Source of the DNA: a virus
Reading direction: 5' to 3' (one strand)
Length of the DNA: 64,000 nt
Virus record (IMG/VR): IMGVR_UViG_3300047470_000343
Location: 1 to 64,000 of that record
The first letter of the stretch is position 1; every line of letters begins with the position of its first letter. Shown here piece by piece: positions 37,601 through 61,282 of the stretch. The position numbers and the translations under genes were made by a program. The notes beneath the pieces are model-generated. The model had not been told where the DNA came from. It ran no database searches and worked only from the letters and a program-made list of their open reading frames with translations.

Positions 37601-39499
37601 CGCCGCGATCTTCCCAGCGATCACCGCGTCCGCCGCGATGGCCGGGGCAGTGACCGCGCCCGACGCCAGGTTGATCGTGTCGACGACGCCGGTTTTCAAG
37701 GCCTCGATCGCGACGTAGTCCACTTGCATCGTCGAGGCCGCGGCCGACTGCTGGTTGTAGTTGAGCCAGACGTACGGACTGATGAACCGCACACCCGCGT
37801 TCACCAGGCCCGGGGAGCGCGGGTCGTTGTTCGGACCGGCGGACCCAGCGACACCGGTACCGGCCCGGCCCTTCAAGAACCCGATGACGGTGACCCAGCC
37901 GTCCGAGTTGGCGACGGCCTTCCCTCCCGCGGCCGCGTAGTAGTGCGAGTTCATCGAGTTGACGCCGTCGCGGTTGACCAGCGTGGTGCCGTCCGCGCCG
38001 ATGCCGAGGACGCCGACATACACCGCGTCGGATGTGCCGGCCTGCGGCATCCGGACCCGAGCGGACACGCGATACAGGACGTCGGGGTCGTACGCGATCT
38101 GGGTGTTGCCCCGCAGACGCGCGAACCCGGTGGCCTGGCCGACGGTCTGGCCGGTGTAGGCGTCGGTGACACCGGTCAGGAAGCTGAAAGAGCCTCCGGG
38201 GCCGAGAGCGGCCACCGTCCACGTGGACGAGTCGCCCAGCGTGTCGACCCACCGCTGGGTGGCGGTGTCGGCAAGGGAGCTGGACAGGGTGGCCAGCGTG
38301 ACGGCCTGCGCGGCGAGCTTGCCCGTCGTGACCGCGGCTGCGCCGATCTTCTGCGCCGTCACGGCGAGGTCTGCGAGCTTTGCCGAGTCGATCGCGGCGG
38401 CCGCGACCTTCGCCGCGGTGACAGCCGAGTCCGCGAGCGCAAGCTCGGTGACCGCGCCGTTGGCGAGCTTCGCCTGAGTGACGGCGTTCGCGCCCAACTT
38501 GGCGGCGAGGACCGCGCCGTCGGCGAGCCGGGTCGAGTCGATCGCGCCCGTGGCCACCTTGGCGGTGGTGACCGCGGCGTCGCCGATCTTCTGCGCGGTG
38601 ACCGCGAGGTCGGCGAGCCGGGTCGAGTCGATGGCGGCCGCCGCGACCTTCGCCGCGGTGACCGCCGAGTCCGCGAGCGCGAGCTCCGTCACCGCGCCGG
38701 CGGCCAGCTTGGACTGAGTCACCGCGTTCGCGGCCAGCTTCGCGTTGAGGACCGCACCGTCCGCGAGCGCCCAGGACTCCACCGCGCCCGCGGCGAGCTT
38801 CGCCGCAGTGACCGCATCGTCCGCCAGGAGTAGATCGGTGATGGCCCCCAGCGCCACCTTTTCGCTGGTGACAGCGGCCGCGGCGAGCTTCGCCGCGGTG
38901 ACAGCTTCCGCGGCCAACTTGACGTCGGTGACAATCCCGTCGATCAAGTCCTGTGACACGGCCTGCCGCGGCGTGCCCTGCACCGCCACGGACGCATCAC
39001 CGGTCAGCAGCGCCGTGTTCTGCGCGACCAGGCGCACCCACACCGGGGCGTAGCCCTCGACATGGACGGTGGCCGTGCCGCCGAGCAGCGCCGTGATCGT
39101 CGCTATCTGCGTGGTCAGGGACGGGGTGAAGTCCTCGGCCGGACCGACGTGGACCTGCACGAGGGAGAAGTCGGCGGGGGCCGCGTCGGCATCCGCCCAC
39201 TGGCCGTCCCAGTCGATGACCAGACCGGCCAGCGCTTCCGTGACGGTCGGGGCAGAGGGTGTGGGCGGCGGCTCGGTGTTGACCGGGTCGGGGACCAGGG
39301 CGACGGTGCCGTCGGACTGCACGCCGACGGAGCCCTTGAGCGTCCCCTCCTCGTCGTAGATGTCGAGGCTGCCACCCTCGATCGAGGCGTAGTTGAGCTG
39401 GTTGGGGCGCTCCAGCGCCGACAGTCGGTCTTCGAGCGCCTTGAAGTACCCGGCGAACTGCTTCGCCTTCTCGCGCTCGTCCAAGCGGAAGGAGGACAC
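34667..39499 (-). CDS. tail fibre/spike with 10-residue repeats and carbohydrate-binding-like domains
   Basis: AVTAAKLAA/ITARELAANSV repeats; duplicated DPxVLYR..ADGTTLVN..ISP domain; NMLPDPSFEG. Confidence 0.85.
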   Translation of the reverse strand: MSSFRLDEREKAKQFAGYFKALEDRLSALERPNQLNYASIEGGSLDIYDEEGTLKGSVGVQSDGTVALVPDPVNTEPPPTPSAPTVTEALAGLVIDWDGQWADADAAPADFSLVQVHVGPAEDFTPSLTTQIATITALLGGTATVHVEGYAPVWVRLVAQNTALLTGDASVAVQGTPRQAVSQDLIDGIVTDVKLAAEAVTAAKLAAAAVTSEKVALGAITDLLLADDAVTAAKLAAGAVESWALADGAVLNAKLAANAVTQSKLAAGAVTELALADSAVTAAKVAAAAIDSTRLADLAVTAQKIGDAAVTTAKVATGAIDSTRLADGAVLAAKLGANAVTQAKLANGAVTELALADSAVTAAKVAAAAIDSAKLADLAVTAQKIGAAAVTTGKLAAQAVTLATLSSSLADTATQRWVDTLGDSSTWTVAALGPGGSFSFLTGVTDAYTGQTVGQATGFARLRGNTQIAYDPDVLYRVSARVRMPQAGTSDAVYVGVLGIGADGTTLVNRDGVNSMNSHYYAAAGGKAVANSDGWVTVIGFLKGRAGTGVAGSAGPNNDPRSPGLVNAGVRFISPYVWLNYNQQSAAASTMQVDYVAIEALKTGVVDTINLASGAVTAPAIAADAVIAGKIAADAITARELAANSVTAAELSAGSVTAAAIAAGTITAGQLAANSVTATQLAAGSVQTAALAADAVAAGKVAADAITARELAANSVTATEISAGAVTATALFAGSVTTAALATDAVTAGKVAADAITARELAANSVTAAEIAAGVITASHIAANTITAGQLAANSVTAASIAAGSIQTAALATDAVAAGKIAADAITARELAANSVTATEISANAVTATAMAANSVTAGSISAGAVTTAAMTAGTIQGDRLAAGSVAADRIVAGSITTSQLSVTTAASIVQKMYDAGADAARWKVNGTSTTTATAPGNLTSVQVSDAQSGGYVMRAVAGFSGGWRPDILIPFDPNVLYRISFTIRQTVASSNTANQRCYAGVVGVAADGTTLVNVSGAASVASQHYVAVAAQNLTAGGGWQRFTGYLKGYAGAGVNGTQVASPTPTAPSVLHANARYISPLFYANYTGGDGTAEIGMFTIEVVETGAVQTVNIQDGAITTPKMVAGSIQGDRITAGTLNADRIVGSSITTAQLGALSVTAAQLAANSVTATAISAGAVTATAISAGSIDATHIKAGAITADRLAITGGSNMLPDPSFEGAGGAALVAGQSFWSIANTGNGSLKSAQVNAVNATAVIRTLTVATFPVLPGQAFRIATDVNPSTDWNGTSVRFYARWIDSAGGVTFGFVTNTTPTKGSWTNLAGTVTAPVGTVTAEFRLASYDATAGTVSFDNASIQPVMSDVLIADGAITANKLDAAAINGKTITGAIVQTAATGSRIVLDASKFSAYGGATATQKIVIQPDYLPLFASTPSPRIYLTSDDGTNEAYLQVNGSGDAASLYTYSGDFVDTADSNTYRWRTYMGKDTWVTERARIVTPFGAIVPDTPRISMTKIQATITAPDTYVVGTFHASSIVTGRVSITPSAANVPTSLTVTGLNINGSSPRFVATASTQVPGTSVLGVGCSDVSTSSVTIWLTRTNTTATSIDYIGMAS

Positions 39500-39590
39500 C
39501 GCCACTCCCTCCACTGCTCCGCGGCCGCCGGGATGTCCGGGGCAGAGCGGGAGAGTGGAAGGAGGGACCCGTTAGCGTCTCGGGCGCAGG

Positions 39591-41829: not shown

Positions 41830-42867
41830 TCACCACCATGTGAAGGCATCCCGCCAGGCGATGCGCACCCGCGGCCCGGCGAACGCCCTGGTCGTCGACT
41901 TCGTGTAGGACAGCGACGCCGTCCAGTAGCCGGGCGGGATGAACATGTTCCGCAGGAGCGGGGAGGCCCGGGTCAGCTTGTCCGCGACGGACTTCGAGGA
42001 GCCGTCCTTGTAGTGGGTGACGGTCCGGATCCACGGGCGGGCGTCGATCTGGACGTAGTCCCCTTCGTCGATCGTCACGTTGACCTGCACCGCCCACAGG
42101 TCCGGGCCCAGCGTGATTTTCGGGTTCTTGCACGGCCCGTGGATCTCGATGTACGGGTGCGTGATGGTCTTGCCGAGCTGCTTGATGCCGGTCGACTTCT
42201 GCGACCCGAGCCCGACCGGCGGCATGTAGCGGCCTGGCCGCGAGGGAAGGGTGACGAACAGGTGGTCATACAGGCTCGCCTCCTTCTCCGTGTCGTCGTA
42301 AAACCGGTCGTCGATCGCGACGAAATCAGCAACGACCGGGACGTACCCCTGGTCGGCCAGTCGGGAGTGCGAGACCGCGAACTTCCGCGGCCGGCCGTAC
42401 AACCGGCGCGTACGGCCCGCCGTCCGGTGGGTCAGCCACGAGACACGGCCCGCCTTCCCCCGGATCGCGTCGGCCCGCCACACCTGCCGCATCATGTCCA
42501 CGCCGTCCAGGACCCGCTCGGCCGGCCCCTGATTCTTCTTGAAGAGGGCAGCCACCAGCTCGGTGTCCGACCAGTCACCGATCCGGGCCCCGCGTGACCA
42601 CGGGCGCATCGGCCAGTGCCGGTCGACCAGCTTGTCCACGCCGTCGACACCTATCTCGAAGGTCACCACGGCGCTGCGCTGGTAGTCGCGGCCCATGCGG
42701 ACGCCGTCCTCGCCGGGCAGGTTGGCGTCGGCGACCTCCGGGTCGGCGAAGGCGATGTCCGGCTCCGACAGGGTGTACATGCCGGACGACATGCGGCCGA
42801 ACGTCAGCGCCGCCCCGGGGTAGTTGTCGTAGTCGTAGTACCCGAGGTACCAGTCGCCGTCTTTCAC
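41830..42867 (-). CDS. distal tail (Dit)-like protein
   Basis: LYGRPRKF, PYIEIHGPCKNP; directly after the tape measure. Confidence 0.75.
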   Translation of the reverse strand: MKDGDWYLGYYDYDNYPGAALTFGRMSSGMYTLSEPDIAFADPEVADANLPGEDGVRMGRDYQRSAVVTFEIGVDGVDKLVDRHWPMRPWSRGARIGDWSDTELVAALFKKNQGPAERVLDGVDMMRQVWRADAIRGKAGRVSWLTHRTAGRTRRLYGRPRKFAVSHSRLADQGYVPVVADFVAIDDRFYDDTEKEASLYDHLFVTLPSRPGRYMPPVGLGSQKSTGIKQLGKTITHPYIEIHGPCKNPKITLGPDLWAVQVNVTIDEGDYVQIDARPWIRTVTHYKDGSSKSVADKLTRASPLLRNMFIPPGYWTASLSYTKSTTRAFAGPRVRIAWRDAFTWW

Positions 42868-45800
42868 GGAGTGCCTCCCAGGCGAATGCGGCGCAGCTCG
42901 AACATCGCGTCTTCAAGCGCGGTGCCGGTGCTCTCAACGGCGCCGATGTTCATGTTGAGATCGCCGCCGACCAGCGCGCCGGCGCCCTGCGGCGTGGACG
43001 CGCGCGAGGCGACGGTGCGGGTGGATGCGGAACGAGCTGAGGCGACAGCGCCGTTGGCGTAGCCCTTGAGCGCGCCCTGACCGGGGTAGACGACCATCCC
43101 GCCGAAGATCTTGGCGACCGCGTCGAGGATGGCCGCGCTGCGCTTGCGCTTCTTAGGCGATAGGGGTACATAAGCTTCGCCCCCGGTCTCTTCTTCACTC
43201 CATAGGCGCAGGTCACCGGCCTTGCTGATCTGGGCAATGTGGTTCTCGGCGCCGTTGGCGAAGGCCTTGACGCGTGCGCCGATGGCGTTGATGCCGCCTT
43301 CGGCGTAGCGCAGGATGCCGCCGTTGGCCTGCCGCTGCACGACGGACGGCTTGCCCTTCTCGCTGTACTGCACGGTCACGTGGACCGTCGTGCCGGTCAG
43401 GTTGTTGATCCGGTCCTGGATCCTCTGGACCTGCGCAAGCGGCGTCGCGTTCGGGGCGGTGATCCGCACCTTCTTGCCGTCCGAGCCATCCACGGTCTTG
43501 ATCTTGTAGCCGAGATCTTTCAGCGCCTGCTGTGCGGTCTTCGTCGGCGCCTTGATCTCGACACTCTTGCCCTTGGGTAGCCCCGCGACCTTGTCCCGGA
43601 CGGTCCGCAGATCCTCGGCGGCCCGCTTGATGATCGTCTCAACGGTGACTTTCTTCCGGTCCGGCGCAGCGATGATGTCCGCCACGAGCGCGCCGATATT
43701 GAAGCGGGCCACGCCCGTCGGGGCGGTGATCGTGACCTTGCTGCTCTTGGGAACCTGCTTGATCTTGAAGCCCAGGTCTTCGAGCTGCTTCTGCGCGCCC
43801 TGCGTGGGCGCCTTGACCGTGATGGTGTTTCCGTTCTTGAGGCCGTCGAGCTTCGCGCGCAGCAGCGCCAGGTCGACGTTCGCCGGGTCCACACCGTCCA
43901 GAGAGATCAGCGAGGTGACGTCGTCGGGGATCAGGCCCATCTGATCCGCGAGTTCCGCGGCCTTGTCCGCCGGGATATGGAAGGCCTCCGCGAGCGCAAT
44001 CGCCTTCGCACGAGTGTCCTTGGCCGCATCCCGGGTGGTGCTCATCGCCTCCGACAGAGGCATGAGGTCGTGGTCGGCGGCGTCGCGCGCACTCCCGGCG
44101 ACGCTGAGCAGGCCGTCGCGCAGCTCCTGAAGCTGCGAGTTGAGCGTCTGGCCGTTCTTCGTGGACGTCTTGACCAGCTTGTCGGCGCCGATGAGCGACT
44201 CGCCCCAGCCCTCGCCGTGCTTGATGTCGCCCTTCATCGTGTCGCCGACCTGGAGCATCGTCTGGTCGAGTCTCGCCGTCGCGTCGTGGACCGACATCAC
44301 GTTGCCCTGGAGCTCGTCCAGAGCCGTCTTCAGGGCATTCACCCGGTCGTCAGACGACGCGGCCTCGTCGTTGAACGTCTTGACCGCGTTCTTCAGCCGC
44401 GTGTAGGAGTCCGTCCCCGTACCGGCGCTGTTGGCCAGCGCCTCGCCCTGCTCCTTGGCGTCCCGCTTGCCCTTCTGAAGCTCGCCGTTCATCTTGCCGA
44501 GAGCGTCAGCGGCGTCCTTGTACCGCTGGCCGGTCTTGCTGTACTTCCCTATGCCTGACTTGTCGGCTGCCGCGCCGTTGTAGTCCTTGTTCGCTTCCGC
44601 CAGGGCCATGAGCTTCTTCTGGAGGTCGCCAACGCTGCCGTCCTGCTCCAGATAGGCGTTCGTCAGATCCTTCAGGGACACTTTCGCGTCCCGCATGATG
44701 TCGACCAGATGCGTCTTGCCGTCGGCCAGCGTCGCGTCCTGGAGCGTCGACACCGCCTGGGCACGCACGTTCGCGTCGATGATGCCGTTGGAGTCCGCAA
44801 GCGCCTTCGTCAGCCCCTCCACACGCTCCTGGTGGGCCTGCGCGGCTCGCGCGCTCTCCTCCTGCTTACTGACCCACCAGCCGAGAAGGACGGTGGCACC
44901 CGCGATGGCGACGCCGAACGGGCCGCCGAGCGCGCCCGTCAGGCCGCCGAGCATCCGCTTCATGCCGCCGCCTGCGGTACGCATGCCGCTCATGACGCCA
45001 CTCAGCCGGCCGCCTTCCGTTGCGGCACCGCGGTAGGACGTGGCGACCCCCGCGAAGCCGGTGGTGATGCTGGTGCCGAACTTCCGCATGACGCCGGCGA
45101 CGCTGCCCATGACCTTGAGCGCGAGGACCGTTCCGAGGAATGTGGCCAGCACCGTATTGGCGTGCGGGATAAGGGTCATGAGCACGTTGAACCCGTGTAT
45201 GAGACCGCTGAAAGACACCATCAGCACGCCGAGCCCGCTGCCCGCTGCGGAGAGATTCCCGAAGGCGGTCGCCAGGTTCGAGATGAGGCTGATCAGTGCG
45301 GGTCCCACACTGTGGCCCAGAGCGCTGAAGAACGTGCCAAGCGCGGGGCCGAGCTCCGTACGGATCTGCCGGATCAGGTCCCTGACCCCGCTGTCCCGCG
45401 CGGCCCGGCCGAAGCTGCGGAAGAAGTCGCCCACGAGCATGTTGAGTTCGTGGAACGTGCCCGCAGAGTCGTCGAAGAACTGTTGCATCACCTTCTGGCC
45501 GGGCTTGCTGTTCGCCCACCGGTTGAAGCGGATCATCGTGCCTTCGAGGCCGTCGAGGAGTCCGTTCCCGACGTCCATTCCGGCCCGGCCGATACCACCG
45601 AAGCCCTTGATCATGTCCCGCGCGGAACGGCCCAACTGCGCGGCCTTGTCCCCGGCGTGGTCCAAGAACTTGGCGAGAGAGCCGGTCTCGCGCCCTGCCT
45701 GAACGGAAGCCCGCATCCACTGCGTCATCCGCTCCGCGCCCGCGCCCACCCGCTCGACGAACGGCCCGGAGGCGACCAGGAAGTCCAGCGAAGCGTGACC

Positions 45801-47936
45801 GAGGTTCGCGAGCCCGTCCGTCATGTGCCCCACGACGGAACTGTTCGTGGACGCGATCTTCTTGAAGTCACGGCGGAACACACCGGACTGCATGAACTCG
45901 GCGCCCCGGTGGGCGAGCTCGCCCATCTGGGCTGCGGAGTCACCCAGCGCGCCCTTCAGCAGCGGGAACACGCTCGTCGCCAGAGGCTTGATGTCACTGG
46001 CGACCTTGGAGAAGAACCGTTCGGAGACGGCAATCTTCACCTTGGACCAGGCGCCGGAAAGCGAGGAGACGGCCGAGACAGCTTTCTTGGCCGACGGCGC
46101 GAGAGCGTCCATCGCCTGCTTCAGCTTCTCCTGCTGCGCCTTGGTCACCTTGCCGTCCGCGGCGAGCTGCTGCTGCGCGACGGCCGACTGCTTCAAGGCC
46201 TCGCCGAAGCCGCTGAACGCGACCTTCGTGCCGATGAAAGCCGAGCCGATCGCGGCGACGATGCCGGGGATCGCGCCCAGAACGCCGACGGCCGGCGCGG
46301 CGGCCGACACGAGTGCGGTGAGCCCGTACATGTACGCGCTCAGGGCCGCGGCCGCAGGCTGTAGAAGCGCGAGCAGTGAGCCGATCAGCGCCATCCGGAA
46401 GCGGCGCCGCCCGCGCATACCCCCGCGTCCCGAGATGTCCGGGGTGACGGGCACGTTGATGGAAAAGCGGCTCGCGAGGGACTGCCCGGCGCTGATCAGG
46501 GACCGCACGCCGCGCATGAACAGGCCGCCGCGGTCGCCGTCGGCACGGACCCGGGCCCGGACGACGGACGTCGCGGCACGGGAGGCGCGGGCGACGATGC
46601 TGGACACGCCGCGCGTCAGGCTGGAGACCGCCCGGACCGCAGGCTGAACAGCGACCCGGACCGCGCTGCGGGTGTCACGGGCCGCGGTCGCGGTGATGCG
46701 GCGCAGGTCCCGGGCCAGGCCCGTGACAGCCGCACGGGCGGGCTGCGTGAGGACCCGCACCCGGGCGGCAACGGCACTGCTGTACGGGGAGATGGCGCTG
46801 CGGATGCTGCGGCCGAACGACATGACGGAGTTGCGGGAGGAGTCCGCTGCCATCCGCACGCCGACCGTGAACTGGGTGCGGTAGCGGCTGGCCATGTCCC
46901 GCACGGACCGGGCGAAGCCGGTGGCGGAGCGGCGGGACATGTCCGCGCCGACCCGCACGCGCACAGCGAAGTCGCGCAGCGGCCCGAAGATCATGCTGTC
47001 CAGCCATCCGGAGCCGCCCAGCCGGCCGCCGAACGCGACGCGCAGCGCGTCGGCTGCCTCCTCGCCGAGTCGGCGCATCTGGCGGCCGATAGCCCGGAAA
47101 TCGGTGCTCCGTACGCGCAGCCCGGCGATCCTGACCCGCAGGGACAGATCGCGGCCGTACGTCGTGAGGAAGTGGCGGGCCTCGCCGAGGAAGGTGCGTA
47201 TCGCGTCGCCGGTGTCGGCGACGCCCAGCCGGATTCGGGCGCCGAGGCTGCGCACCAGGCCGGCGTTCTTGCCGAGCATGGTGAAGAACGAACGGCTGAA
47301 CGCCCGCCCGGTGTCCCGGCCAGCGGTGACCGCGATACGGCCCATCTCCCGGACGAACGTGCGCAGCACGCCCCGGGTAGGGGCAAGCGCCGACCGTGTG
47401 ACCACCCGTAGCTGCCGTAGCGCCACGGTGGCGATCCGGGAGAGGGAGCCGCCGAGCTGACGCTCCGAGTCTCGGTCCGGCGCGACCCGTACCCGGACCG
47501 TGGAGGCCGCCGGGTCCCGGGCCACCCGGGTGAGCAGACCTCGCAGCGAACCGCGGAGCCTGCCCACCAGACGGCCCAGGCCGCCGCCACCGCCACCACC
47601 GCTTCGGGTGTTGCCGTCCTCGTCGTCGCCCAGGCGCACGGGCAGGTTCACCGCCGCGCCCTGCGCGGCGTTGTCGGCCACGGCGGACACCTCACGGCGA
47701 AGCCGGTTGGTGTCCTCCTCGACCTTGACCTTGACCTTCGCGTAGACGCCCTTGGACGCCTCCTCGACAGCCCGCTTCAACTGCTTGCGCAGTCCCTTGC
47801 TGTCGACCTTGACGGCGATCTTGGCGGCCACACCCTCGGCGGCCGCCTCCACCTTCGTGCGCAGCTCCCGGGCGAACCCTTCGAGGGAGGCGACAACGGT
47901 GACTTCAAGGCGTCCTGCCTGCATGCCCTCAGCCAC
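42864..47936 (-). CDS. tape measure protein
   Basis: 1690 aa, Ala/Gly-rich helical; C-terminal ANGG..ETGGEAYVPL. Confidence 0.9.
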   Translation of the reverse strand: MAEGMQAGRLEVTVVASLEGFARELRTKVEAAAEGVAAKIAVKVDSKGLRKQLKRAVEEASKGVYAKVKVKVEEDTNRLRREVSAVADNAAQGAAVNLPVRLGDDEDGNTRSGGGGGGGLGRLVGRLRGSLRGLLTRVARDPAASTVRVRVAPDRDSERQLGGSLSRIATVALRQLRVVTRSALAPTRGVLRTFVREMGRIAVTAGRDTGRAFSRSFFTMLGKNAGLVRSLGARIRLGVADTGDAIRTFLGEARHFLTTYGRDLSLRVRIAGLRVRSTDFRAIGRQMRRLGEEAADALRVAFGGRLGGSGWLDSMIFGPLRDFAVRVRVGADMSRRSATGFARSVRDMASRYRTQFTVGVRMAADSSRNSVMSFGRSIRSAISPYSSAVAARVRVLTQPARAAVTGLARDLRRITATAARDTRSAVRVAVQPAVRAVSSLTRGVSSIVARASRAATSVVRARVRADGDRGGLFMRGVRSLISAGQSLASRFSINVPVTPDISGRGGMRGRRRFRMALIGSLLALLQPAAAALSAYMYGLTALVSAAAPAVGVLGAIPGIVAAIGSAFIGTKVAFSGFGEALKQSAVAQQQLAADGKVTKAQQEKLKQAMDALAPSAKKAVSAVSSLSGAWSKVKIAVSERFFSKVASDIKPLATSVFPLLKGALGDSAAQMGELAHRGAEFMQSGVFRRDFKKIASTNSSVVGHMTDGLANLGHASLDFLVASGPFVERVGAGAERMTQWMRASVQAGRETGSLAKFLDHAGDKAAQLGRSARDMIKGFGGIGRAGMDVGNGLLDGLEGTMIRFNRWANSKPGQKVMQQFFDDSAGTFHELNMLVGDFFRSFGRAARDSGVRDLIRQIRTELGPALGTFFSALGHSVGPALISLISNLATAFGNLSAAGSGLGVLMVSFSGLIHGFNVLMTLIPHANTVLATFLGTVLALKVMGSVAGVMRKFGTSITTGFAGVATSYRGAATEGGRLSGVMSGMRTAGGGMKRMLGGLTGALGGPFGVAIAGATVLLGWWVSKQEESARAAQAHQERVEGLTKALADSNGIIDANVRAQAVSTLQDATLADGKTHLVDIMRDAKVSLKDLTNAYLEQDGSVGDLQKKLMALAEANKDYNGAAADKSGIGKYSKTGQRYKDAADALGKMNGELQKGKRDAKEQGEALANSAGTGTDSYTRLKNAVKTFNDEAASSDDRVNALKTALDELQGNVMSVHDATARLDQTMLQVGDTMKGDIKHGEGWGESLIGADKLVKTSTKNGQTLNSQLQELRDGLLSVAGSARDAADHDLMPLSEAMSTTRDAAKDTRAKAIALAEAFHIPADKAAELADQMGLIPDDVTSLISLDGVDPANVDLALLRAKLDGLKNGNTITVKAPTQGAQKQLEDLGFKIKQVPKSSKVTITAPTGVARFNIGALVADIIAAPDRKKVTVETIIKRAAEDLRTVRDKVAGLPKGKSVEIKAPTKTAQQALKDLGYKIKTVDGSDGKKVRITAPNATPLAQVQRIQDRINNLTGTTVHVTVQYSEKGKPSVVQRQANGGILRYAEGGINAIGARVKAFANGAENHIAQISKAGDLRLWSEEETGGEAYVPLSPKKRKRSAAILDAVAKIFGGMVVYPGQGALKGYANGAVASARSASTRTVASRASTPQGAGALVGGDLNMNIGAVESTGTALEDAMFELRRIRLGGTP

Positions 47937-50919: not shown

Positions 50920-51513
50920 TCACCGCGCCGGAGCGAACGCCGGGTCGTCGGTGAGCAGGTACCAGGCGTCGGCGTCGTCGCCGCCCTGCACGGCCAGGCG
51001 CAGCGGCAGCACGGCCTCCTTCGACTTCTGGAGGTCCGACTGCACGCCCTCCATCTGCATGGCGCGCGGCACGACGTACCGGTAGTGCTTGCCGCCGTCG
51101 ATGACCTCGACCACGGCCGCGATTTCGCCGCGGCCGCCGACGCGAGGCGGCACGAACTTGTAGTGCTTCGGGGTGCCGCCGCCACCGGCAGGCGTGATTT
51201 CGGTGATCTCGCCGCCGCCGAACACCGCCGTGAAGTTGGCGCCGTTCCACTGCTGGAGGTCGACCTCGATCGTCGCCGCGTCCGAGGTCTGGAAGGTGCG
51301 CGACGGGTAGTCCGACTGCGCGCTCTTCACGGTCTCGAACTGGGGCTCTTCGTTGAACTTGAGCGAGTCCTCGGTGGTGAGGCCGACGCTGTACCAGCCG
51401 GAGCCCATGACGGCGGTTGCGTCCGCCGGGGCCGCGGTGCCGACGGGCGCAAGCCATACCTGGGTGCGTGCGGGGATGACGATCTGGGTGTTGTTCGTGA
51501 TGTCGCCACTCAT
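50920..51513 (-). CDS. major tail protein
   Basis: VWLAPVGTAAP..WYSVGLTTED pattern; position. Confidence 0.85.
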   Translation of the reverse strand: MSGDITNNTQIVIPARTQVWLAPVGTAAPADATAVMGSGWYSVGLTTEDSLKFNEEPQFETVKSAQSDYPSRTFQTSDAATIEVDLQQWNGANFTAVFGGGEITEITPAGGGGTPKHYKFVPPRVGGRGEIAAVVEVIDGGKHYRYVVPRAMQMEGVQSDLQKSKEAVLPLRLAVQGGDDADAWYLLTDDPAFAPAR

Positions 51514-53384: not shown

Positions 53385-54020
53385 TCAGCCCGCCACAGCC
53401 GTGACGAGAGCCTTGGAGATGCCCAGCTTCACCGCGGTCGCGTACGTCGTGAACGCCGTCGTGCGGTTCCCGCGGTTGGCCCGGTTCGTGTCGCCGCCGG
53501 TGAAGAACGCCTGTCGCTGCGCCGTGGTCAGCTCCAGTTGGACGCCCATGCCCCTGGTCGTGCGGTTGCAGATGTTCGCGGGGTCGTTGCCGTTCAGCTC
53601 CTCGGAGGCGACGCTCACCGTGAAACCGGCGTCTTTGAGGCACTGCCCGATCTGGTCGCGGAGGTTGTAGTCGGCGCCGCCGAGGAACGTCGCCGCGGTG
53701 GTGCCGCTCGCGCCGTGGAACGACACGGCGTGCGTGGCGGCCGCCGCCATCTTCAAGGCCTGCGCCTCGTCGTAGCGGGTCGACGTGACGTGCAGGTCAT
53801 CGTTGGTGCCCGCGGTCTTGAACCCGTCGAGGGCATAGAAATTGTGGATGTCTCCGGCGACGACGTCCGCGATCTCCTGAGAGCCGGGCTCGATACCGCC
53901 GCCGTGGATCGCGAAGCACACCAGTGTCGACACCTGGGAGAGTCGCCACAGCCGTTGAAAGTCGATGCCCTCGATCTGGGCGGCTGCCAACTGCGCGTAG
54001 GAGCTGTAGAGGTCGGGCAT
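53385..54020 (-). CDS. poly-gamma-glutamate hydrolase family protein (PghP/DUF867)
   Basis: AIHGGGIEPGSQEIA, LHVTSTRYDE, VSFHG, NICN..GVQLEL. Confidence 0.85.
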   Translation of the reverse strand: MPDLYSSYAQLAAAQIEGIDFQRLWRLSQVSTLVCFAIHGGGIEPGSQEIADVVAGDIHNFYALDGFKTAGTNDDLHVTSTRYDEAQALKMAAAATHAVSFHGASGTTAATFLGGADYNLRDQIGQCLKDAGFTVSVASEELNGNDPANICNRTTRGMGVQLELTTAQRQAFFTGGDTNRANRGNRTTAFTTYATAVKLGISKALVTAVAG

Positions 54021-54044
54021 CAATCCTGCCTTGTCGGGTCGGGG

Positions 54045-54926: not shown

Positions 54927-55448
54927 CTACTCGCCGAGCTGCGCGCGCAGGGTGGCGACGATGTGCTCGGCGTCCTGGCGCTGGACTTCCGCACCGACCG
55001 ACAGCAGGAGCCGCGAAGCCGGCGTGCGGTAGGGGCCCATGCTGATGTGCTCGATCAGCCGCTTCGTGGAGCGCCAGACGTTGCCGTACGGCGGTACGGG
55101 CTCGAACACGCCGTCGGGGTCGGTAGGTGCGAGGCCGGTCAGCTCGTCGACGATGCAGTCGCCGATCTCCGCGGGCAGGAGGGCATCGGGGCCGACAGGC
55201 TTCGGCGGGGCCGTCGCCCTGGTCGGCGCGGGCGGGGCCTCCAGCGGAGCGACCTCCGGCGCCTTCGTCTCGACCTCGGCAGCGGAGACGGCCTTGTTCT
55301 CGATCTCGGCTGTGCCGGTCTCGGTGTCGTCCGCGACGGCCTTCGCCTCCGCCGGGGCAGTCTCCGCCTCGACTACGGGCACGGTCTCCTCTACGACGGG
55401 CGCGGGTTCCGCCGCGGCCGCAGCCTTGCGGGTTCGGGGTGTTGCCAC
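54927..55448 (-). CDS. hypothetical protein
   Basis: GGAGG RBS; acidic Ala/Pro-rich N-terminus. Confidence 0.65.
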   Translation of the reverse strand: MATPRTRKAAAAAEPAPVVEETVPVVEAETAPAEAKAVADDTETGTAEIENKAVSAAEVETKAPEVAPLEAPPAPTRATAPPKPVGPDALLPAEIGDCIVDELTGLAPTDPDGVFEPVPPYGNVWRSTKRLIEHISMGPYRTPASRLLLSVGAEVQRQDAEHIVATLRAQLGE

Positions 55449-55554: not shown

Positions 55555-56037
55555 TTAGGAGTAGGTGAAGCCGTTCGTCTTGGTCACGGCCCCCGCGTCG
55601 TCGCCGACGATGACGTTCTTCGCACCGGCGGTACCGGCCGGAGTGGTGACCTGGATGGCCTCGGACGACAGGATCTTGAGGTTGGTGCCCGCCGTGCTGC
55701 CGAACTTGACGTCGGCGACGCCGTCGAGGTTCGTGCCGGTGATGGTCACCACCGTTCCGCCGGCGGCCAGGCCGGTGGCCGGGGACACCGTCGCGACGGT
55801 CGCCGCAGGGAACAGCTTGTCGATCTGCGACTGACGCACCACCTGCCCGGCCCGGAACATGATCGTCTTGATCGAGCCCTCGGGAGCGCGGTCACGGCTG
55901 TTCGTGGGGCGGGTGCCCTCGTCGAACCGGCGCGTGGCGTACACGTCCTGGGTGACGACCAGCTCGGGGTCGGATACTGCACTGGTCGGGAAGGCGGCCT
56001 TGGTGATGCGGGCACCAGCGGCGTTGTACAGGCCCAT
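55555..56037 (-). CDS. IPT/TIG (Ig-like) domain protein, probable virion decoration
   Basis: VSPATGLAAGGTVVTITGTNL..VKFG..TPAG..FTY. Confidence 0.85.
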   Translation of the reverse strand: MGLYNAAGARITKAAFPTSAVSDPELVVTQDVYATRRFDEGTRPTNSRDRAPEGSIKTIMFRAGQVVRQSQIDKLFPAATVATVSPATGLAAGGTVVTITGTNLDGVADVKFGSTAGTNLKILSSEAIQVTTPAGTAGAKNVIVGDDAGAVTKTNGFTYS

Positions 56038-56114
56038 GAGGAGCCCCTTTCTCAGGTGTGGTCGAGTGCCGCAGCGTGCCCGACGAGAGGCCCTACAGTC
56101 CCCGCCTGGGGCCG

Positions 56115-57362
56115 TCACAGGATGCGGAGGTCGTCCCACCCGTTCTTCGTGACGGAGAAGACCAGCAGACCCGGCTGGGACACCTCGCCCGAGCGCATCG
56201 CGTACCAGTCCGAACCGTTGTCCAGAGTCGGCGCCTGCACCCACAGCCGGCCCGCGCCGAGCTGCTGCGCACGGAAGTGGTGGAAGTGCCCGGACACGAG
56301 GATCCGGGCGTCCGCGATCGGCTGACGGCCGAACGTCTGCCCCTTCCACCAGTCCGGCGCCTTCTCCGGGCGGGCGTACTGGTGGCCGTGGTTGAGGCCC
56401 ACGACGGTGCCCGCCATGTCGAGGCTGACGGTGTCGCGCCAGGGCTCCGGCGTCACGAACGACACGTGCCCGTACGCGTTCTGGTTCTTGGCGTACGCGT
56501 CCGCGATCTGGCTCATGACCTCGATGCCCCAGTCGTCCTCCGGGGGCCCCACAGGGTCCTTCCCGCGCCGTACGCGGGCATGGTTGCTGCCGCACGTCGC
56601 GGCGACCACCCGAGGGAACGCTGTCGCGAGACGGTCCAGGCCCTCGAACGTCATCCGCCGGTGCACGCGCACCATCTGCGTGAGCGTCAGATCGTTGGTG
56701 AACGCCTGGCTCGCCACGTTCTCGAACCCCTCGATGCAGTCACCTGCGTCGAGCCAGTACGCGGAGTCGGGGGCGCGGCCGACCTTGCCGAGGTCACGGA
56801 CGTGGTCCTCAAGCCGGTCGAATCGCTCGGCGACACGGGCCACGAGTTCCTTGGTCCCGCCGTCCCGGCCGACCTTCCCGGCCTGCGGGTCGGCGTACAC
56901 CACGGCGAGCGCCCGCTCGGTCGTCTCGGCCGGAGTGCGGGGGGTGCGGCGGCGCCGCATCGCGTCCTTGATCAGGCTGTTGAGGTCTTCCGCGGACGCC
57001 CACCCGGGCGCCGACGGCTCGATCAGGTAGCGGCAGCGCCACACCGGCCGGGTCACGGCGTCCTCGCCCTGCGCGTCGCGATGCCACGCGGCCGGGTCGT
57101 GCCGGGCTTCCACCAGCCGGACCCGGTAGCCCTCGGGCACGACCAGGCCGAGCTCCTCCACCCGCGCACGCCACCCGAGTTCGTCCTGGCCCGGCGCCTC
57201 GGCGGCCGGCGCGGTGACGAGCATCGACCCGCCCGGCTCGTAGCGCACTCCGGGCTCCCAGCCCTTCGGCGCCGCGGTGGTGGGACGGGTCGTCTCCGGC
57301 GGTGTGGTCTGCTCCGCAGAGGCGGGCGCCAGGAGCGCATCTAGCTGTTCGTCAAGACTCAT
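56115..57362 (-). CDS. calcineurin-like metallophosphoesterase
   Basis: ADPQ, AGDCIEG, GSNH, HGHQ, SGHFHH. Confidence 0.85.
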   Translation of the reverse strand: MSLDEQLDALLAPASAEQTTPPETTRPTTAAPKGWEPGVRYEPGGSMLVTAPAAEAPGQDELGWRARVEELGLVVPEGYRVRLVEARHDPAAWHRDAQGEDAVTRPVWRCRYLIEPSAPGWASAEDLNSLIKDAMRRRRTPRTPAETTERALAVVYADPQAGKVGRDGGTKELVARVAERFDRLEDHVRDLGKVGRAPDSAYWLDAGDCIEGFENVASQAFTNDLTLTQMVRVHRRMTFEGLDRLATAFPRVVAATCGSNHARVRRGKDPVGPPEDDWGIEVMSQIADAYAKNQNAYGHVSFVTPEPWRDTVSLDMAGTVVGLNHGHQYARPEKAPDWWKGQTFGRQPIADARILVSGHFHHFRAQQLGAGRLWVQAPTLDNGSDWYAMRSGEVSQPGLLVFSVTKNGWDDLRIL

Positions 57363-57628
57363 CGCGGGCACCTGCATCCGTTCGAGGCGCCGCGGCGCCG
57401 GTGCCGTGCCACAGACGGGGCCTGCACGGGATAGCCGCTGGCCGTGAGCGTGTCCGCGATCCGCGTGGACGTCACCATGTGGGTGTCGAGCAGCCCGTTC
57501 AGCTTCTCCGCGGTCGCGGCGTCGAGAGACGCCAGGATGTCGCCGACTGTGCAGCGTGCGCCGCGGCGTGGGGCGGGCTCGGTCATGAGCTGGGTCAGGG
57601 CCGTGCTCAGCCCGTCGGTGTCTGCCAC
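57359..57628 (-). CDS. small Cys-containing protein coupled to the phosphoesterase
   Basis: RCTVG..VARHRRR..CRC; 4-bp overlap. Confidence 0.65.
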   Translation of the reverse strand: MADTDGLSTALTQLMTEPAPRRGARCTVGDILASLDAATAEKLNGLLDTHMVTSTRIADTLTASGYPVQAPSVARHRRRGASNGCRCPR

Positions 57629-57728: not shown

Positions 57729-59030
57729 TTAGACCGGGTCGGTCCACGTGCCGATGACGAACGACTCCGGGCGGCTGACCTCCAGGGCCAGACGCTCGTC
57801 GGCGCGGAACGTGAGGACGCCGCGCTCGAAGTTGTCGCTGTTCTCCGAGGAGACGGTGACCGAGACGTTCTCCCGGTCGTAGATCTGGGCGCCCATGCCG
57901 AAGGAGCCGAGGAGGTACTTGTCGTCGGGCATGGCCGTGGTCTCGACGACGTTGACGCGCCACACGCGCTTCTGGGCGCCGACGGCGACCTGGAGGGCGA
58001 CGCGGAAGGCGCCGTTGTCGTCGGTCTCGACCTCGACCTGCTCCCACATGGTGGGGCTCAGCACGACGCCGGTCGGCTCGTACTCCGCCAGGAGCGCCTT
58101 GGTCATGGCCCGGCGCATCTGGATGCTGAACTTGTCGCTGTTCTGACCGGTGTACGTCTGCACGCCGGTCGTGTTGAACAGGCCGGTGATCTTGGTGCCG
58201 TCGGTGCCGACGCTGTGGAGCAGGTCCCAGTCCTCGGCGAACTTGATGCCCTCGATGAGACGCGAGTTGATGAACTGCTTCAGGCGCGGCTCGTCGCTGA
58301 GGATGTTCTTGTGGCCGTCGAGCATGTGGGCGATCTCGCTGACCGGGAAGGACACCGGCTGGAGGGTCAGCTTCGAGCGGGGGGCCCGCCCGAACACGTC
58401 GGTGTCGAGGCCGGTCGGCGCGGACGTGCCGTCGGCCGCGCGACGCTCGGCGACCTGCGCGGCGTTGTTCACCCAGCCGGTCTCGCGGATGCCCTGAAGT
58501 ACCGCGTTCTTCGTGGTCGCCTTCGGGAACAGGTCCCGAATGTGGAACTTGCGGCGCTGCGCGTCGGTGATCCCGAGATCCTGGACGCCGCCGAGGGCCG
58601 CGTGGGTCTGGGTGCCGGCCGTCAGGGAGAAGATCGACTTCCCCTCCATCTCGGCGCGGATGAACGGGCGGTCCTTGAACTGCGCGCGGGCCGCGGCCTG
58701 GTAGGCGTCGGACGCGACGAACATGTCGCCGAGGGTCTTGACCTCGGTGTCGGAGCCGGAGCCGCCGCCGCCGTAGTACTGACCCGCGGCCGAGGAGCCA
58801 GCGGGGGCGTCGAGGTACTGGCCGAGGGCTTCGGCGCCGGTCGCGGCGTCGATCAGGCCCTTGATCTCCTGGGCGTCCTTGACCGCCTTGACGTAGGCGT
58901 TGCGCTGCTCGGTCGAGACGACGAATGCGCCGTTCTCTTCTTTGAACGTCCCTGCGATGCGCTCGGCTTCGGCGGACTTCTCGTTGAGCTGGCTCTTCAG
59001 TGAGCGCAGAAGGCTCTGGTCGGTAGGCAT
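57729..59030 (-). CDS. major capsid protein, HK97 fold
   Basis: N-terminal delta-like domain; IRDLFP, FRADERLALEVSRPESFV. Confidence 0.93.
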   Translation of the reverse strand: MPTDQSLLRSLKSQLNEKSAEAERIAGTFKEENGAFVVSTEQRNAYVKAVKDAQEIKGLIDAATGAEALGQYLDAPAGSSAAGQYYGGGGSGSDTEVKTLGDMFVASDAYQAAARAQFKDRPFIRAEMEGKSIFSLTAGTQTHAALGGVQDLGITDAQRRKFHIRDLFPKATTKNAVLQGIRETGWVNNAAQVAERRAADGTSAPTGLDTDVFGRAPRSKLTLQPVSFPVSEIAHMLDGHKNILSDEPRLKQFINSRLIEGIKFAEDWDLLHSVGTDGTKITGLFNTTGVQTYTGQNSDKFSIQMRRAMTKALLAEYEPTGVVLSPTMWEQVEVETDDNGAFRVALQVAVGAQKRVWRVNVVETTAMPDDKYLLGSFGMGAQIYDRENVSVTVSSENSDNFERGVLTFRADERLALEVSRPESFVIGTWTDPV

Positions 59031-59196: not shown

Positions 59197-61194
59197 TCAG
59201 AGTGCGAGTGCGGCCAGTGCCGCCTTGACCTCCGTGGGGTCCAGGTGCACGGTGTCGTCCTCGTCCGGCTCGTCGTCGGGCTCGTCGGCCGGGGTGTTCC
59301 CCGGGGGAACAGCCGTGTCCGCGTAGGGGATCGTGCTGTCGGCCGGTCCGTCGTCGGCGGTGGCGCTGTCGGCGAGTTCGTCATAGGCGGCGGGATCGTC
59401 GTCCTCGTCGTCGGGCCAGCCGTCGGTGATCGAGTACTTGTCCAGCCACGAGTCGGAGTCGTCCGCGTCCGCGTCGTCGTCCATGGGGACGCCCTTCTTC
59501 GAAAGGGCGTCGAGGAGTTTCCCGATGGTGGGCCGCAGGTGTTCCAGGTGCGCGGGTCCGGCGTCGGACACCTCGATCAGCGCCGTGGCGTCCTGGAGAG
59601 CCCGGTCGGTCGGCTTGATGAACCGCTCGCGGGTGGTCTCCGTGGCGTCGGCCAGTCGCTCCGGCCCGGCAACAGGGGTGGCCACGGTGGTGAGTTCCAC
59701 CTGAACCGGCACGCCCAGGTCCACGTCCCGGCCCGACACGGTGTACGGGATCGCGTACGTGTCCGTGTCGCCGTCGTCGTAGCGGCTGACGATGATCCGG
59801 TCGGGGTAAGTCGCCTCGATCGCCACCCAGCAGCATTCCGGCTGCTCGGGGCCGCCGCGGTCGTCGTTGTCCGAGGCGAGCAGTGCGCGCGCGGCCTTGC
59901 TGAGCTGGTCGCGGAGCTGCTCGTAGGAGTAGGGCATGGGTGTGCTCATGAGTCGCTCCGGGAGCTGAATGGGTTCGGCGGACTTGGCCTCGATCACGAT
60001 CTGCGCGGCCGACTTCTGTTCCAGGCCCGCGGCGGCGTTGGCCGACTTCGCCTCCATCACGATCTGCGCCGCCGACTTCGCCTCCATCGGGGCAGCGGGT
60101 GCGGCCGCGGTCTCGTCGGGGGCCGCACCGAGCGGCACCTCGAACTCGTCACCGCCGCGGACCACGTGGAGCGTCGTGAAGGTGACCGGTGTGGCCGGCA
60201 CCGGGTCGGGGCCGTTCAGGTCGTAGCCGAGGGTCACGTGCGGGGTGAACCCGTGGTCGTCGCGGACCGCTTCGGAGTACGGGGACCCGGACAGGGCGAG
60301 TACAACCTGCTGCCGCAGTTCCGCGAGGCCCGGCACGTCGACCGGCACCCACGTGGGTACGCCGTCCCCGGTGTCGGGGAAGACGCCGATGCCGCCGAGA
60401 GTGCCCGCCAGCGGGCCCGTGTCGTTCACGGCCGGGGTGACGATGTCGCGGAGATCGTCCGGGTGCCCGCCGAGTTCGCCGACGTCGCCGAGGTAGGCGA
60501 GCGTGATGTGCAGGTTCTCCGGGGCGGTGCCGTCGGGCTGGGCGATCGTCTCGGCGACGTCTGCGGGGATCTTCAGCGCGATCATCACGCCGCGCCCTAC
60601 CTGCGACTCGGCGGCCTTCAGCTCGATCGCCGACCACGTGGCCTTGCGCTCCAGTTCGTTGCGCGCCCGGGTCGCGGCCTTCACCTCGATACTGCGGGTC
60701 ATCGGGTGCGCGCCGTGCAGCACGGGGCTCACCTCGTACAGGTCCAGGTCGTGGATGATGCGGACGCCGTCGTGGCGCTTGGATGCGCCGCCCGGCGGGA
60801 CCTTGAAGCCGATGGAGAACTGCGCTTCGCCGTTCTCGTGCCACTGGCGGACCTGTTCGTAGGCGTCGCGGCCGCGGGTGGTGCGCAGGTTGTACTGGCA
60901 GGTCGCGACGAGCGCCCCGGCCTCCTTGGGCCACACGGAGCCGCCCGGGATCGAGGCGAAGCGCGGATCCCCCGGCATCCATTCCTCGATCGACAGGACA
61001 CTGCCGACCGGCTCTTTCCAGTCGTGGCTCCACACCGGCTTCACTCGGCGCGTGGCCAGGGTGCGGGTGAACGCTCCGGGGATGATGAGGTCTTCGACAT
61101 CGTCGACCACGCCGGTGACTGCGAAGATGGCGCGGACGATGCCCTTTCCGCCGCGGGCGCGGCGCAGCATTGCAGTGGGCGGCGGGCTCGGCAC
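59197..61194 (-). CDS. HK97-type prohead protease fused to a 2H phosphoesterase domain
   Basis: WSHDW..FSIGF..LYEVSPV protease motifs; HITL and HVTL 2H motifs. Confidence 0.88.
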   Translation of the reverse strand: MPSPPPTAMLRRARGGKGIVRAIFAVTGVVDDVEDLIIPGAFTRTLATRRVKPVWSHDWKEPVGSVLSIEEWMPGDPRFASIPGGSVWPKEAGALVATCQYNLRTTRGRDAYEQVRQWHENGEAQFSIGFKVPPGGASKRHDGVRIIHDLDLYEVSPVLHGAHPMTRSIEVKAATRARNELERKATWSAIELKAAESQVGRGVMIALKIPADVAETIAQPDGTAPENLHITLAYLGDVGELGGHPDDLRDIVTPAVNDTGPLAGTLGGIGVFPDTGDGVPTWVPVDVPGLAELRQQVVLALSGSPYSEAVRDDHGFTPHVTLGYDLNGPDPVPATPVTFTTLHVVRGGDEFEVPLGAAPDETAAAPAAPMEAKSAAQIVMEAKSANAAAGLEQKSAAQIVIEAKSAEPIQLPERLMSTPMPYSYEQLRDQLSKAARALLASDNDDRGGPEQPECCWVAIEATYPDRIIVSRYDDGDTDTYAIPYTVSGRDVDLGVPVQVELTTVATPVAGPERLADATETTRERFIKPTDRALQDATALIEVSDAGPAHLEHLRPTIGKLLDALSKKGVPMDDDADADDSDSWLDKYSITDGWPDDEDDDPAAYDELADSATADDGPADSTIPYADTAVPPGNTPADEPDDEPDEDDTVHLDPTEVKAALAALAL

Positions 61195-61282
61195 GGCGGG
61201 TTCCTCCTAGGCGGGGCTCTCGATGCGCGCACCGTGCCCCGCCCGGGGGGTTAGCGTCCCGTCGTGCCCTTCCGGCCGGGCC

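Follow-up and report, generated by a model that had tools for sequence, protein, structure and literature searches.

Why should a phage build a phosphoesterase into the protease that is expected to mature its capsid? The question is raised by a single gene in a 64,000-nucleotide stretch of viral DNA (the window), which forms the first 64 kb of the 93,785-bp IMG/VR record IMGVR_UViG_3300047470_000343 (CheckV completeness 69%). The source element, with a G+C content of about 70% in the window, is taken to be a Gilgamesh-like Streptomyces phage-plasmid of about 130 kb. The gene, at 59197-61194 on the minus strand, encodes a polyprotein, in which an HK97-type S78 prohead protease, a first linker, a LigT-like 2H phosphoesterase domain, a second linker, a domain that we call domain X, an acidic tail and a short C-terminal peptide follow one another from N to C terminus. 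An earlier note, made from the DNA letters alone, had described it as a protease polyprotein with a 2H phosphoesterase bracketed by putative E-x-K cleavage sites, and this description is upheld by Pfam and PHROGs profiles, by a check of the sites and by their conservation among homologues. On balance, and by a modest lead over even chances, we take the gene product to be a self-processing head-assembly polyprotein, whose 2H enzyme would be packaged in the head, cut free, injected and active early in the next infection; the anatomy as read from the sequence is well supported, the mechanism plausible. The parts of the gene, all on the minus strand, are as follows (arrows mark candidate cuts):

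59197-61194, minus strand: polyprotein gene, 665 amino acids; stop codon at 59197-59199, GTG start at 61194, AGGAGG ribosome-binding site at 61203-61208
60691-61194, minus strand: S78 (HK97 gp4-type) prohead serine protease, residues 1-168 (PF04586, phrog_80, comparison with HK97 gp4)
60610-60690, minus strand: linker 1, residues 169-195, candidate sites IEVK↓A, LERK↓A, IELK↓A
60109-60609, minus strand: predicted 2H phosphoesterase (LigT/ThpR-like), residues 196-362 (PF13563, PF02834, AlphaFold model, Foldseek, VIA)
60502-60510, minus strand: HxT motif 1, H229-I-T231
60232-60240, minus strand: HxT motif 2, H319-V-T321
59980-60108, minus strand: linker 2, residues 363-405, candidate sites MEAK↓S, MEAK↓S, LEQK↓S, IEAK↓S
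59485-59979, minus strand: domain X, residues 406-570 (AlphaFold model; partner of S78 in a profile search)
59245-59484, minus strand: acidic low-complexity tail, residues 571-650 (poorly conserved, gap-rich columns)
59200-59244, minus strand: conserved C-terminal peptide LDPTEVK↓AALAALAL, candidate site 8 residues from the end

An AGGAGG precedes the GTG start by 8 nt, and the coordinates first given for the gene are therefore right. All eight sites named at the outset are present in the translation (IEVKA169, LERKA181, IELKA190, MEAKS370, MEAKS380, LEQKS391, IEAKS401 and TEVKA654) and, all of the form [ILMT]-E-x-K-[AS], take up 8 of the 21 lysines of the polyprotein; those of linker 2 form two pairs, with 10 residues between the members of each pair. 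Matches to [ILMVFT]ExK[AST] thus number eight, against a mean of 0.10 and a maximum of 3 in shuffled sequences, and none of 100,000 shuffles reached the observed figure. Across the contig, ExK[AST] accounts for 10 of the 42 lysines in the protease and capsid proteins, whereas the remaining 53 called genes have 13 of their 821 lysines in this context (odds ratio 19, p = 1.8e-8). A search of the protein database yielded 333 homologues of the polyprotein at E <= 1e-5; the best 120, which all belong to Streptomyces or Kitasatospora, many of them on contigs of 120-137 kb and some labelled as plasmid, form together with the query the set of 121 sequences used below. In this set the motif positions are kept down to 47% identity, with a site consensus in which [LIVM]-E-x-K precedes Ala, Ser or Thr and the next residue is often Ala, and the motif claims 73-89% of the linker and C-terminal lysines. 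Site by site, and then for the lysines of each region family-wide, the counts are:

Linker 1, E-x-K kept at first, second and third site: 120/121, 121/121 and 67/121 homologues
Linker 2, E-x-K kept at the four sites in order: 118, 96, 92 and 117 of 121 homologues
C-terminus, E-V-K-A kept near the end: 109/121 homologues
Protease core, lysines within ExK[AST]: 0/687
Linker 1, lysines within ExK[AST]: 281/361
2H core, lysines within ExK[AST]: 0/184
Linker 2, lysines within ExK[AST]: 409/562
Domain X, lysines within ExK[AST]: 5/339
Acidic tail, lysines within ExK[AST]: 0/82
C-terminus, lysines within ExK[AST]: 108/122

This partition of the motif between linkers and domain cores, drawn from aligned sequences, is the strongest result of the analysis, and since conserved cut-site motifs are confined to the linkers, loading of the 2H enzyme into the head and its release there by cleavage are probable.

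Which enzyme would do the cutting? The polyprotein matches Peptidase_S78 (PF04586, E 1.1e-12, 48.9 bits against a curated cutoff of 21), and phrog_80 extends over its residues 13-195 (E 5.5e-23). His57 (61024-61026) was aligned by BLAST to HK97 gp4 His65. Pairwise alignment to HK97 gp4 is unreliable outside this His region, and Ser127 (60814-60816) was therefore assigned by motif identity and conservation: it lies within S-I-G-F, whose counterpart in HK97 is S114-V-G-F, His65 and Ser114 being the catalytic residues of HK97 gp4. Both His57 and Ser127 are invariant or near-invariant in two sets of 121 and 61 homologues. The gene is situated between the portal and capsid genes and adjoins a capsid gene with a delta domain, the order expected of an HK97-type protease. 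By profile, by its catalytic His and Ser as recognised in the alignments and by gene position, the polyprotein is an HK97-type S78 protease, for which cleavage of the capsid precursor is predicted. Among PHROGs it matches head maturation protease families as well as 2H families labelled 'RNA ligase', and one profile, phrog_18402, covers both the protease and the 2H part, so that fused forms must already be present among sequenced phages; database homologues carry names such as 'HK97 family phage prohead protease' or '2'-5' RNA ligase family protein'.

The presumed substrate is encoded next to the polyprotein:

57729-59030, minus strand: HK97-fold major capsid protein, 433 amino acids, with N-terminal delta/scaffold domain (PF05065, E 3.2e-29)

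The PF05065 match begins at capsid residue 154 and leaves about 130 N-terminal residues, in which three candidate sites are found: QEIK↓G (QEIKG54, K57), TEVK↓T (TEVKT95, K98) and MEGK↓S (MEGKS128, K131). The latter two had been pointed out before near the expected boundary of the delta domain and are indeed there and conserved in relatives; QEIKG54 is added as a third conserved site. Comparison of eight syntenic Streptomyces loci, among them the phage Gilgamesh (capsid identity 65%), showed that the three sites are kept as E-I-K↓G/S, E-[VIE]-K↓S/T and [MI]EGK↓S. K131↓S132 stands five residues before the position aligned to K103↓S104 of HK97 gp5 (BLAST, E 2e-36), the known maturation cut of that protein, likewise between Lys and Ser. 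On this alignment, the mature capsid protein is predicted to begin at Ser132.

It should be considered at this point whether E-x-K is cut at all. The E-x-K-[AST] repeats might instead have a structural or binding role, as linker helices, say, or as contacts with the capsid interior in the manner of delta-domain segments, in which case the polyprotein would remain intact and be either tethered or removed whole. Cleavage at E-x-K is a prediction from sequence, and the presence of the motif inside the scaffold (delta) domain of the capsid protein could reflect shared interactions; such a role is most plausible for the last motif, which is embedded in a conserved helical peptide from which distant relatives have lost E-x-K. 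However, E (P3), K (P1) and a small residue at P1' are strictly conserved while P2 is free, which is the typical pattern of protease subsites, and E and K at positions i and i+2 form no helix salt bridge. Moreover, the tandem sites stand at every domain border and nowhere else, and the site in the capsid protein falls at the homologous cleavage position of HK97, where Lys is also followed by Ser. We consider a purely structural role of the repeats distinctly improbable.

If the polyprotein is cut, is the domain set free a working enzyme, and on what might it act? Both HxT motifs that had been seen in the DNA are found (LHITL at residues 228-232, PHVTL at 318-322); among 118 aligned sequences H229 and H319 are invariant, and T231 and T321 are conserved in at least 90%. 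Pfam recognises 2_5_RNA_ligase2 (PF13563, E 2.1e-11, 44.5 bits against a cutoff of 27) and LigT_PEase (PF02834, 26.3 bits against a cutoff of 23.3). The AlphaFold (AF2) model of residues 196-365 has a mean pLDDT of 89 and resembles the cyclic phosphodiesterase (CPDase) of D. radiodurans, 5h7e (phmmer E 4.3e-7, Foldseek E 2.6e-9; VIA Z 18.0, root-mean-square deviation 2.7 over 156 residues, 26% identity), followed in VIA by T. thermophilus TT0787 (Z 16.6) and E. coli LigT (Z 15-16). Fold and intact catalytic residues of the 2H domain are thus established from alignment and model; the domain is LigT-like rather than Acb1-like, and phosphodiesterase activity is predicted.

The earlier note had drawn an analogy with Acb1 of phage T4, which would make the packaged 2H domain an enzyme directed against the cyclic-oligonucleotide-based anti-phage signalling system (CBASS), cleaving its 3'-5' cyclic oligonucleotide signals. 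Structure prediction and Foldseek support the analogy as far as the common 2H fold is concerned: Acb1 (7t26) is matched with a Foldseek E value of 1.2e-4 and a VIA Z of 10.3 (19% identity, 128 residues aligned). One distant protease-fusion relative among 61 shows a weak Acb1 Pfam match (E 1.7e-4), and degradation of signals has been predicted for head-fused 2H domains (Iyer et al., PMC5512222). The analogy fails in its closer part: Acb1 appears at rank 36 only, below LigT/ThpR, Usb1, AKAP18 and viral 2',5'-phosphodiesterases; LigT/ThpR enzymes score far higher (Z 15-18, 20-26% identity); the Acb1 family PF23474 is absent from the Pfam matches of the polyprotein at E <= 0.1; and the motifs HITLAYLG and PHVTLGY are LigT-like. 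The fold, furthermore, does not reveal the substrate. Action of the Acb1 type is, in our opinion, very unlikely.

What lies on the other side of the 2H domain? The further domain noticed there in the earlier note does exist, but it turned out to be a widespread partner of S78 proteases rather than an obvious extra cargo. Domain X is modelled by AF2 as a helix, a five-stranded sheet and a two-helix hairpin (pLDDT 85.6). It has no Pfam or PHROG match, Foldseek against the PDB gave nothing at E <= 0.001, and its best VIA score (Z 7.7, to cystatin/NTF2-like folds) is at the generic background level; matches in BFVD are weak (E >= 0.012), several of them named 'prohead protease'. A profile of domain X, searched against 1.84 billion representatives, retrieved 303 clusters at E <= 0.001, and among the best 150 of these, 96 have an N-terminal S78 protease. 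Domain X follows the protease within 110 residues, that is with little or no insert, in 35 of these 96 representatives, and is separated from it by an insert of at least 110 amino acids in the remaining 61, in which Pfam identifies:

2H: 27-28/61 representatives
NUDIX: 10/61
PG_binding_1: 4/61
Intein/LAGLIDADG: 2/61
No Pfam match: the remainder of the 61

Protease and domain X look like the basic unit in this comparison of sequences, and domain X being a widespread C-terminal partner of S78 proteases, the 2H domain sits in an insertion slot. Together with the acidic tail and the C-terminal peptide, domain X makes up the C-terminal module with which proteases of this clade are usually combined. 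Domain X is probably a scaffold or capsid-docking part, and the C-terminal peptide behind the acidic tail is a candidate capsid-docking helix; the wider family keeps the pattern LDP....A.L..L of this peptide without E-x-K. Many relatives, with longer polyproteins, contain in addition a module of about 70 amino acids (phrog_6439) between the two site pairs of linker 2, which this phage lacks and which, judged by its position in the alignment, looks like a second small cargo cassette; it carries GDFDRCV...GYCNLRHH motifs (L009:11195-11413 and L010:11144-11359 in two related loci).

From these arrangements a broader proposal can be formulated, which we hold as a tentative one, short of an even chance. 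Any enzyme placed between the protease and domain X with its tail, and flanked by E-x-K↓[AST], would be co-assembled at the stoichiometry of the protease, cut free, kept and injected; 2H, NUDIX, phrog_6439, peptidoglycan (PG)-binding and unnamed inserts would then be interchangeable counter-defence cargo, and the comparative data would define the recognition motif.

How could such a polyprotein work? Taken together, the comparative motif evidence, the motif at the delta boundary of the capsid protein and the intact 2H residues make head cargo released by the protease the best reading. The polyprotein would enter the procapsid via its C-terminal module, as the HK97 protease does via its C-terminal part. 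Once activated, the protease would cut after the Lys of each motif, whereby the delta domain of the capsid protein would be destroyed and the polyprotein split into a 19.0 kDa protease, an 18.4 kDa 2H domain, a 27.4 kDa piece of domain X and tail (residues 405-657, pI 4.1) and peptides of 9-12 residues, while its last 8 residues would be released. Having no internal sites, the folded 2H domain would stay in the head, in numbers from tens to about a hundred if it is loaded as in HK97 or D3; this scale is suggested by the protease copies in Prohead 1, about 60 in HK97 and about 90 in D3 (PMC12749128). The domain would leave with the DNA and, soon after reaching the next cell, attack substrates of the 2',3'-cyclic-phosphate type or related nucleotides or RNAs.

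The least secure step concerns the function that this activity would serve. An RtcB or Rnl-type RNA ligase was not found on this record, which is 69% complete, and three fuller relatives have no RtcB/Rnl ligase on the contig of the element, these genes being located on other contigs. This agrees with the observation that 2H domains associated with heads are not accompanied by ligases (Iyer et al., PMC5512222). Since no ligase partner of the 2H domain was found there and since NUDIX can take the same slot, degradation of nucleotide-derived host defence signals would be more likely than RNA repair.

Several points weigh against delivery of the 2H enzyme. The HK97 protease digests itself and leaves the capsid, so that one would not expect the pieces to be retained by default. 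A folded domain of 18 kDa would also have to pass down a siphovirus tail. The nearest structural relatives in the model comparison, LigT/ThpR, are housekeeping RNA-end enzymes and not proven anti-defence nucleases, and a partner RNA ligase could lie in the missing part of the incomplete record. Outside the Streptomyces/Kitasatospora clade E-x-K is not conserved in the C-terminal peptide although the helix pattern is kept, so that the last 'site' may serve for docking and not be cut. Finally, the literature yielded no virion proteomics, N-termini, activity or ejection data for the polyprotein family.

The self-removal of the HK97 protease is at the same time a precedent for an alternative, in which E-x-K is cut and the 2H enzyme never reaches the next host: it would work in the producer cell or procapsid only, or be degraded or expelled, and thus represent scaffold mass or an RNA or nucleotide enzyme of late infection that owes its co-expression to the fusion. 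The signal of the prohead protease in P1 and lambda virions is weak (PMC9024508), and many Gordonia phages encode the homologous 2H on its own, adjacent to the protease gene, an arrangement that would need no packaging. Yet the cores have been purged of the motif (0 of 184 lysines in 2H), which looks like protection from digestion, and the catalytic residues of 2H are conserved as described above, both His without exception. The slot, moreover, also holds NUDIX small-molecule hydrolases, which have been linked to early counter-defence (PMC9503650), and it is hard to see why an enzyme of the cytoplasm alone should be placed between a protease and a docking domain. We regard processing without delivery as unlikely.

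Should release of packaged cargo by the protease prove true, it would amount to a rule by which some siphophages load tens to about 100 ready-made enzyme copies into their heads, consisting of an anchor (protease and domain X), a motif for release (E-x-K with Ala, Ser or Thr after it) and a position at which the cargo can be exchanged. The general prediction of injected head-fused effectors would become a mechanism with mappable sites, a clade of S78 proteases would gain a candidate recognition motif, and 2H, NUDIX and the unnamed inserts would become candidates for early counter-defence enzymes in Streptomyces phage-plasmids; the slot could also serve to package foreign proteins in phage capsids. 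Should it fail, the gene would still be a well-annotated protease fusion of ordinary interest.

The surroundings of the gene are those of a head module, with the order portal (with MuF), staphylococcal nuclease, giant protein, small acidic protein, polyprotein and capsid, followed by a metallophosphoesterase, a TIG-domain protein, a 173-amino-acid protein and the head-tail adaptor. Directly upstream of the polyprotein a 209-amino-acid acidic protein is encoded, preceded by an open reading frame of 8,175 amino acids that runs out of the window. FEVKA at the beginning of the adjoining upstream gene, which the earlier note had listed with the other sites, did not hold up: homologues show YAVKN, FSVKA, FDVKN or FAIKA at this place, and because the Glu is not conserved it was rejected as a site of the protease. 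The giant frame extends on the minus strand from 62878 to the window end at 64000 and on to contig position 87405; the last 373 residues, which lie in the window, have no Pfam match, and its homologues in relatives are partly captured as frames of 1,854-2,916 amino acids, Gilgamesh gp48 having about 4,625. ExK[AST] is not enriched in the giant protein (3 of 311 lysines). Two stretches in it resemble the C-terminal peptide of the polyprotein, LDPKQVRNDLA (3311) and DAPVKLDAGQVRNDLAAL (4675); both are weak BLAST matches (E 0.4-0.8), and a hidden Markov model built from 109 protease tails did not match either stretch.

Other genes of the region deserve a brief mention. The 173-amino-acid protein (54927-55448, minus strand) has three ExK motifs in its low-complexity N-terminal part (AEAKA33, IENKA49 and VETKA59), of which VETK↓A alone is roughly conserved, as E-[TS]-K followed by T, I or A, Gilgamesh lacking it; by this motif the protein may be another substrate of the protease. 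In the portal, AESK↓T (residues 22-26) is a candidate that could represent an N-terminal processing site. The gene of the metallophosphoesterase (56115-57377, minus strand; phrog_284 'exonuclease', E 3.6e-58) stands between those of the capsid protein and the head-tail adaptor. No other gene of the module is as well conserved in relatives (75-90% identity, above most capsid homologues), and its product may be another virion-associated enzyme. The protein encoded at 55558-56100 (minus strand) in the head module has a C-terminal IPT/TIG domain (PF01833, E 1.1e-13) and may serve to decorate the capsid. Interspersed with the neck and tail genes is one for a poly-gamma-glutamate hydrolase (53385-54023, minus strand; PF05908, E 1.7e-56), and the tail tube protein is encoded at 50920-51513 (minus strand; PF25681, E 3.3e-36); two very large reading frames of the tail region, 42864-47936 (minus strand, 1,690 amino acids) and 34667-39514 (minus strand, 1,615 amino acids), have no Pfam match. 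Beyond the window, at 87400-93785 of the contig (L016), the portal has a C-terminal MuF-like part (819 amino acids in all) and is adjoined by a staphylococcal-nuclease-like gene, with a PCMT-type methyltransferase further on.

How does the polyprotein compare with systems already described? HK97 gp4 shares with it the S78 family, the matching His and S-x-G-F Ser and the position of its gene just upstream of an HK97-fold capsid gene with a delta domain. Unlike the polyprotein, it has 225 amino acids and no enzyme insert, whereas the 665 residues studied here include a 2H enzyme, domain X, an acidic tail and E-x-K↓[AST] repeated in the protein's own linkers. In herpesviruses, the protease-scaffold precursor has its protease at the N terminus, set apart from a scaffold part at the C terminus; similarly, cleavage close to the C terminus of the polyprotein would detach a capsid-binding tail. 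For targeted head cargo that is trimmed by the protease, experimental evidence is available from the internal proteins (IPs) of T4, Dar of P1 and the ejection proteins of SPN3US, some of which reach the host and counter its defence (PMC9024508, PMC10052503, PMC7411985). T4 IPs (with a capsid-targeting sequence), the ejection proteins of SPN3US/phiKZ and P1 Dar enter the procapsid by means of a targeting element and are trimmed at a short consensus. In T4, phiKZ and P1, however, each cargo is made independently and bears its own signal, while here it forms part of the protease chain, and the proteases of T4 and phiKZ cut after Glu, whereas the motif described above ends in Lys. The likeness to the T4, phiKZ, P1 and herpesvirus systems is one of functional analogy, not of homology.

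As to the enzyme, the bacterial and archaeal LigT/ThpR CPDases (D. radiodurans, 5h7e; E. coli LigT, 5ldm; T. thermophilus, 1iuh) are the best matches of the 2H domain in sequence and fold and share with it two HxT motifs in an H-x-T-L-x-[FY]-L-G context; they are free-standing cellular enzymes, whereas this 2H is a module of a virion polyprotein with predicted activity. Acb1 of phage T4 or FBB1 (7t26) is, like it, a phage-encoded member of the 2H superfamily, and both could degrade nucleotide signals; it is clearly the more distant match, and its PF23474 profile is absent from the Pfam matches. Acb1 is a free cytoplasmic protein and is not known to be fused to head proteins.

The general idea is already in print: it has been proposed that enzymes fused to head-assembly proteins, including the capsid-processing peptidase, are packaged in the head and injected (PMC5512222, PMC9503650). 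Fusions of 2H to MuF or portal were predicted to be head-packaged and proposed to be RNases or degraders of nucleotide signals (Iyer et al. 2017, PMC5512222), and the polyvalent or head-fused 2H proteins of that study resemble the present one in having 2H in a virion-assembly module without an RNA ligase partner. The polyprotein has the architecture of such head-packaged fusions, from which packaging is predicted: an effector enzyme and a protein of virion assembly are joined in one chain, which is encoded in the head module beside the capsid gene. It differs in the partner, since 2H is placed here between an S78 protease and a C-terminal domain and is bracketed by candidate sites. Our literature search returned no description of a 2H-prohead protease fusion, of an E-x-K specificity, of a protease-domain X slot or of E-x-K bracketing shared with the capsid, and no paper on either Gilgamesh or the phosphodiesterase of phage BCSR5. 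Actinophage head modules contain comparable 'RNA ligase' genes, and more than 100 actinophages possess a homologous 2H domain, which may be encoded on its own next to the protease, as in Gordonia phage Clown, or be joined to a MuF or protease protein in varied arrangements (BayC gp11, Hans gp20, Edmundo gp18); Edmundo gp18 differs in that its protease belongs to another family, S78_2/XkdF, and its 2H is at the N terminus. A Nudix domain fused to a capsid-processing serine peptidase was likewise predicted to be packaged and injected (Iyer et al. 2022, PMC9503650); in this published fusion the enzyme is not 2H, and neither cleavage motifs nor a domain X slot were described there. Such a protein is found in the closest sequenced phage relative, Gilgamesh (MN234216), which has the same synteny of giant protein, small acidic protein, polyprotein, capsid and metallophosphoesterase. 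Its gp52 (L001:6986-8911), a 'hydrolase' in GenBank, consists of S78 protease, NUDIX, domain X and tail with the same E-x-K linkers and is 53% identical over the matched parts, and between these linkers it carries a NUDIX domain exactly where the polyprotein of this phage carries 2H.

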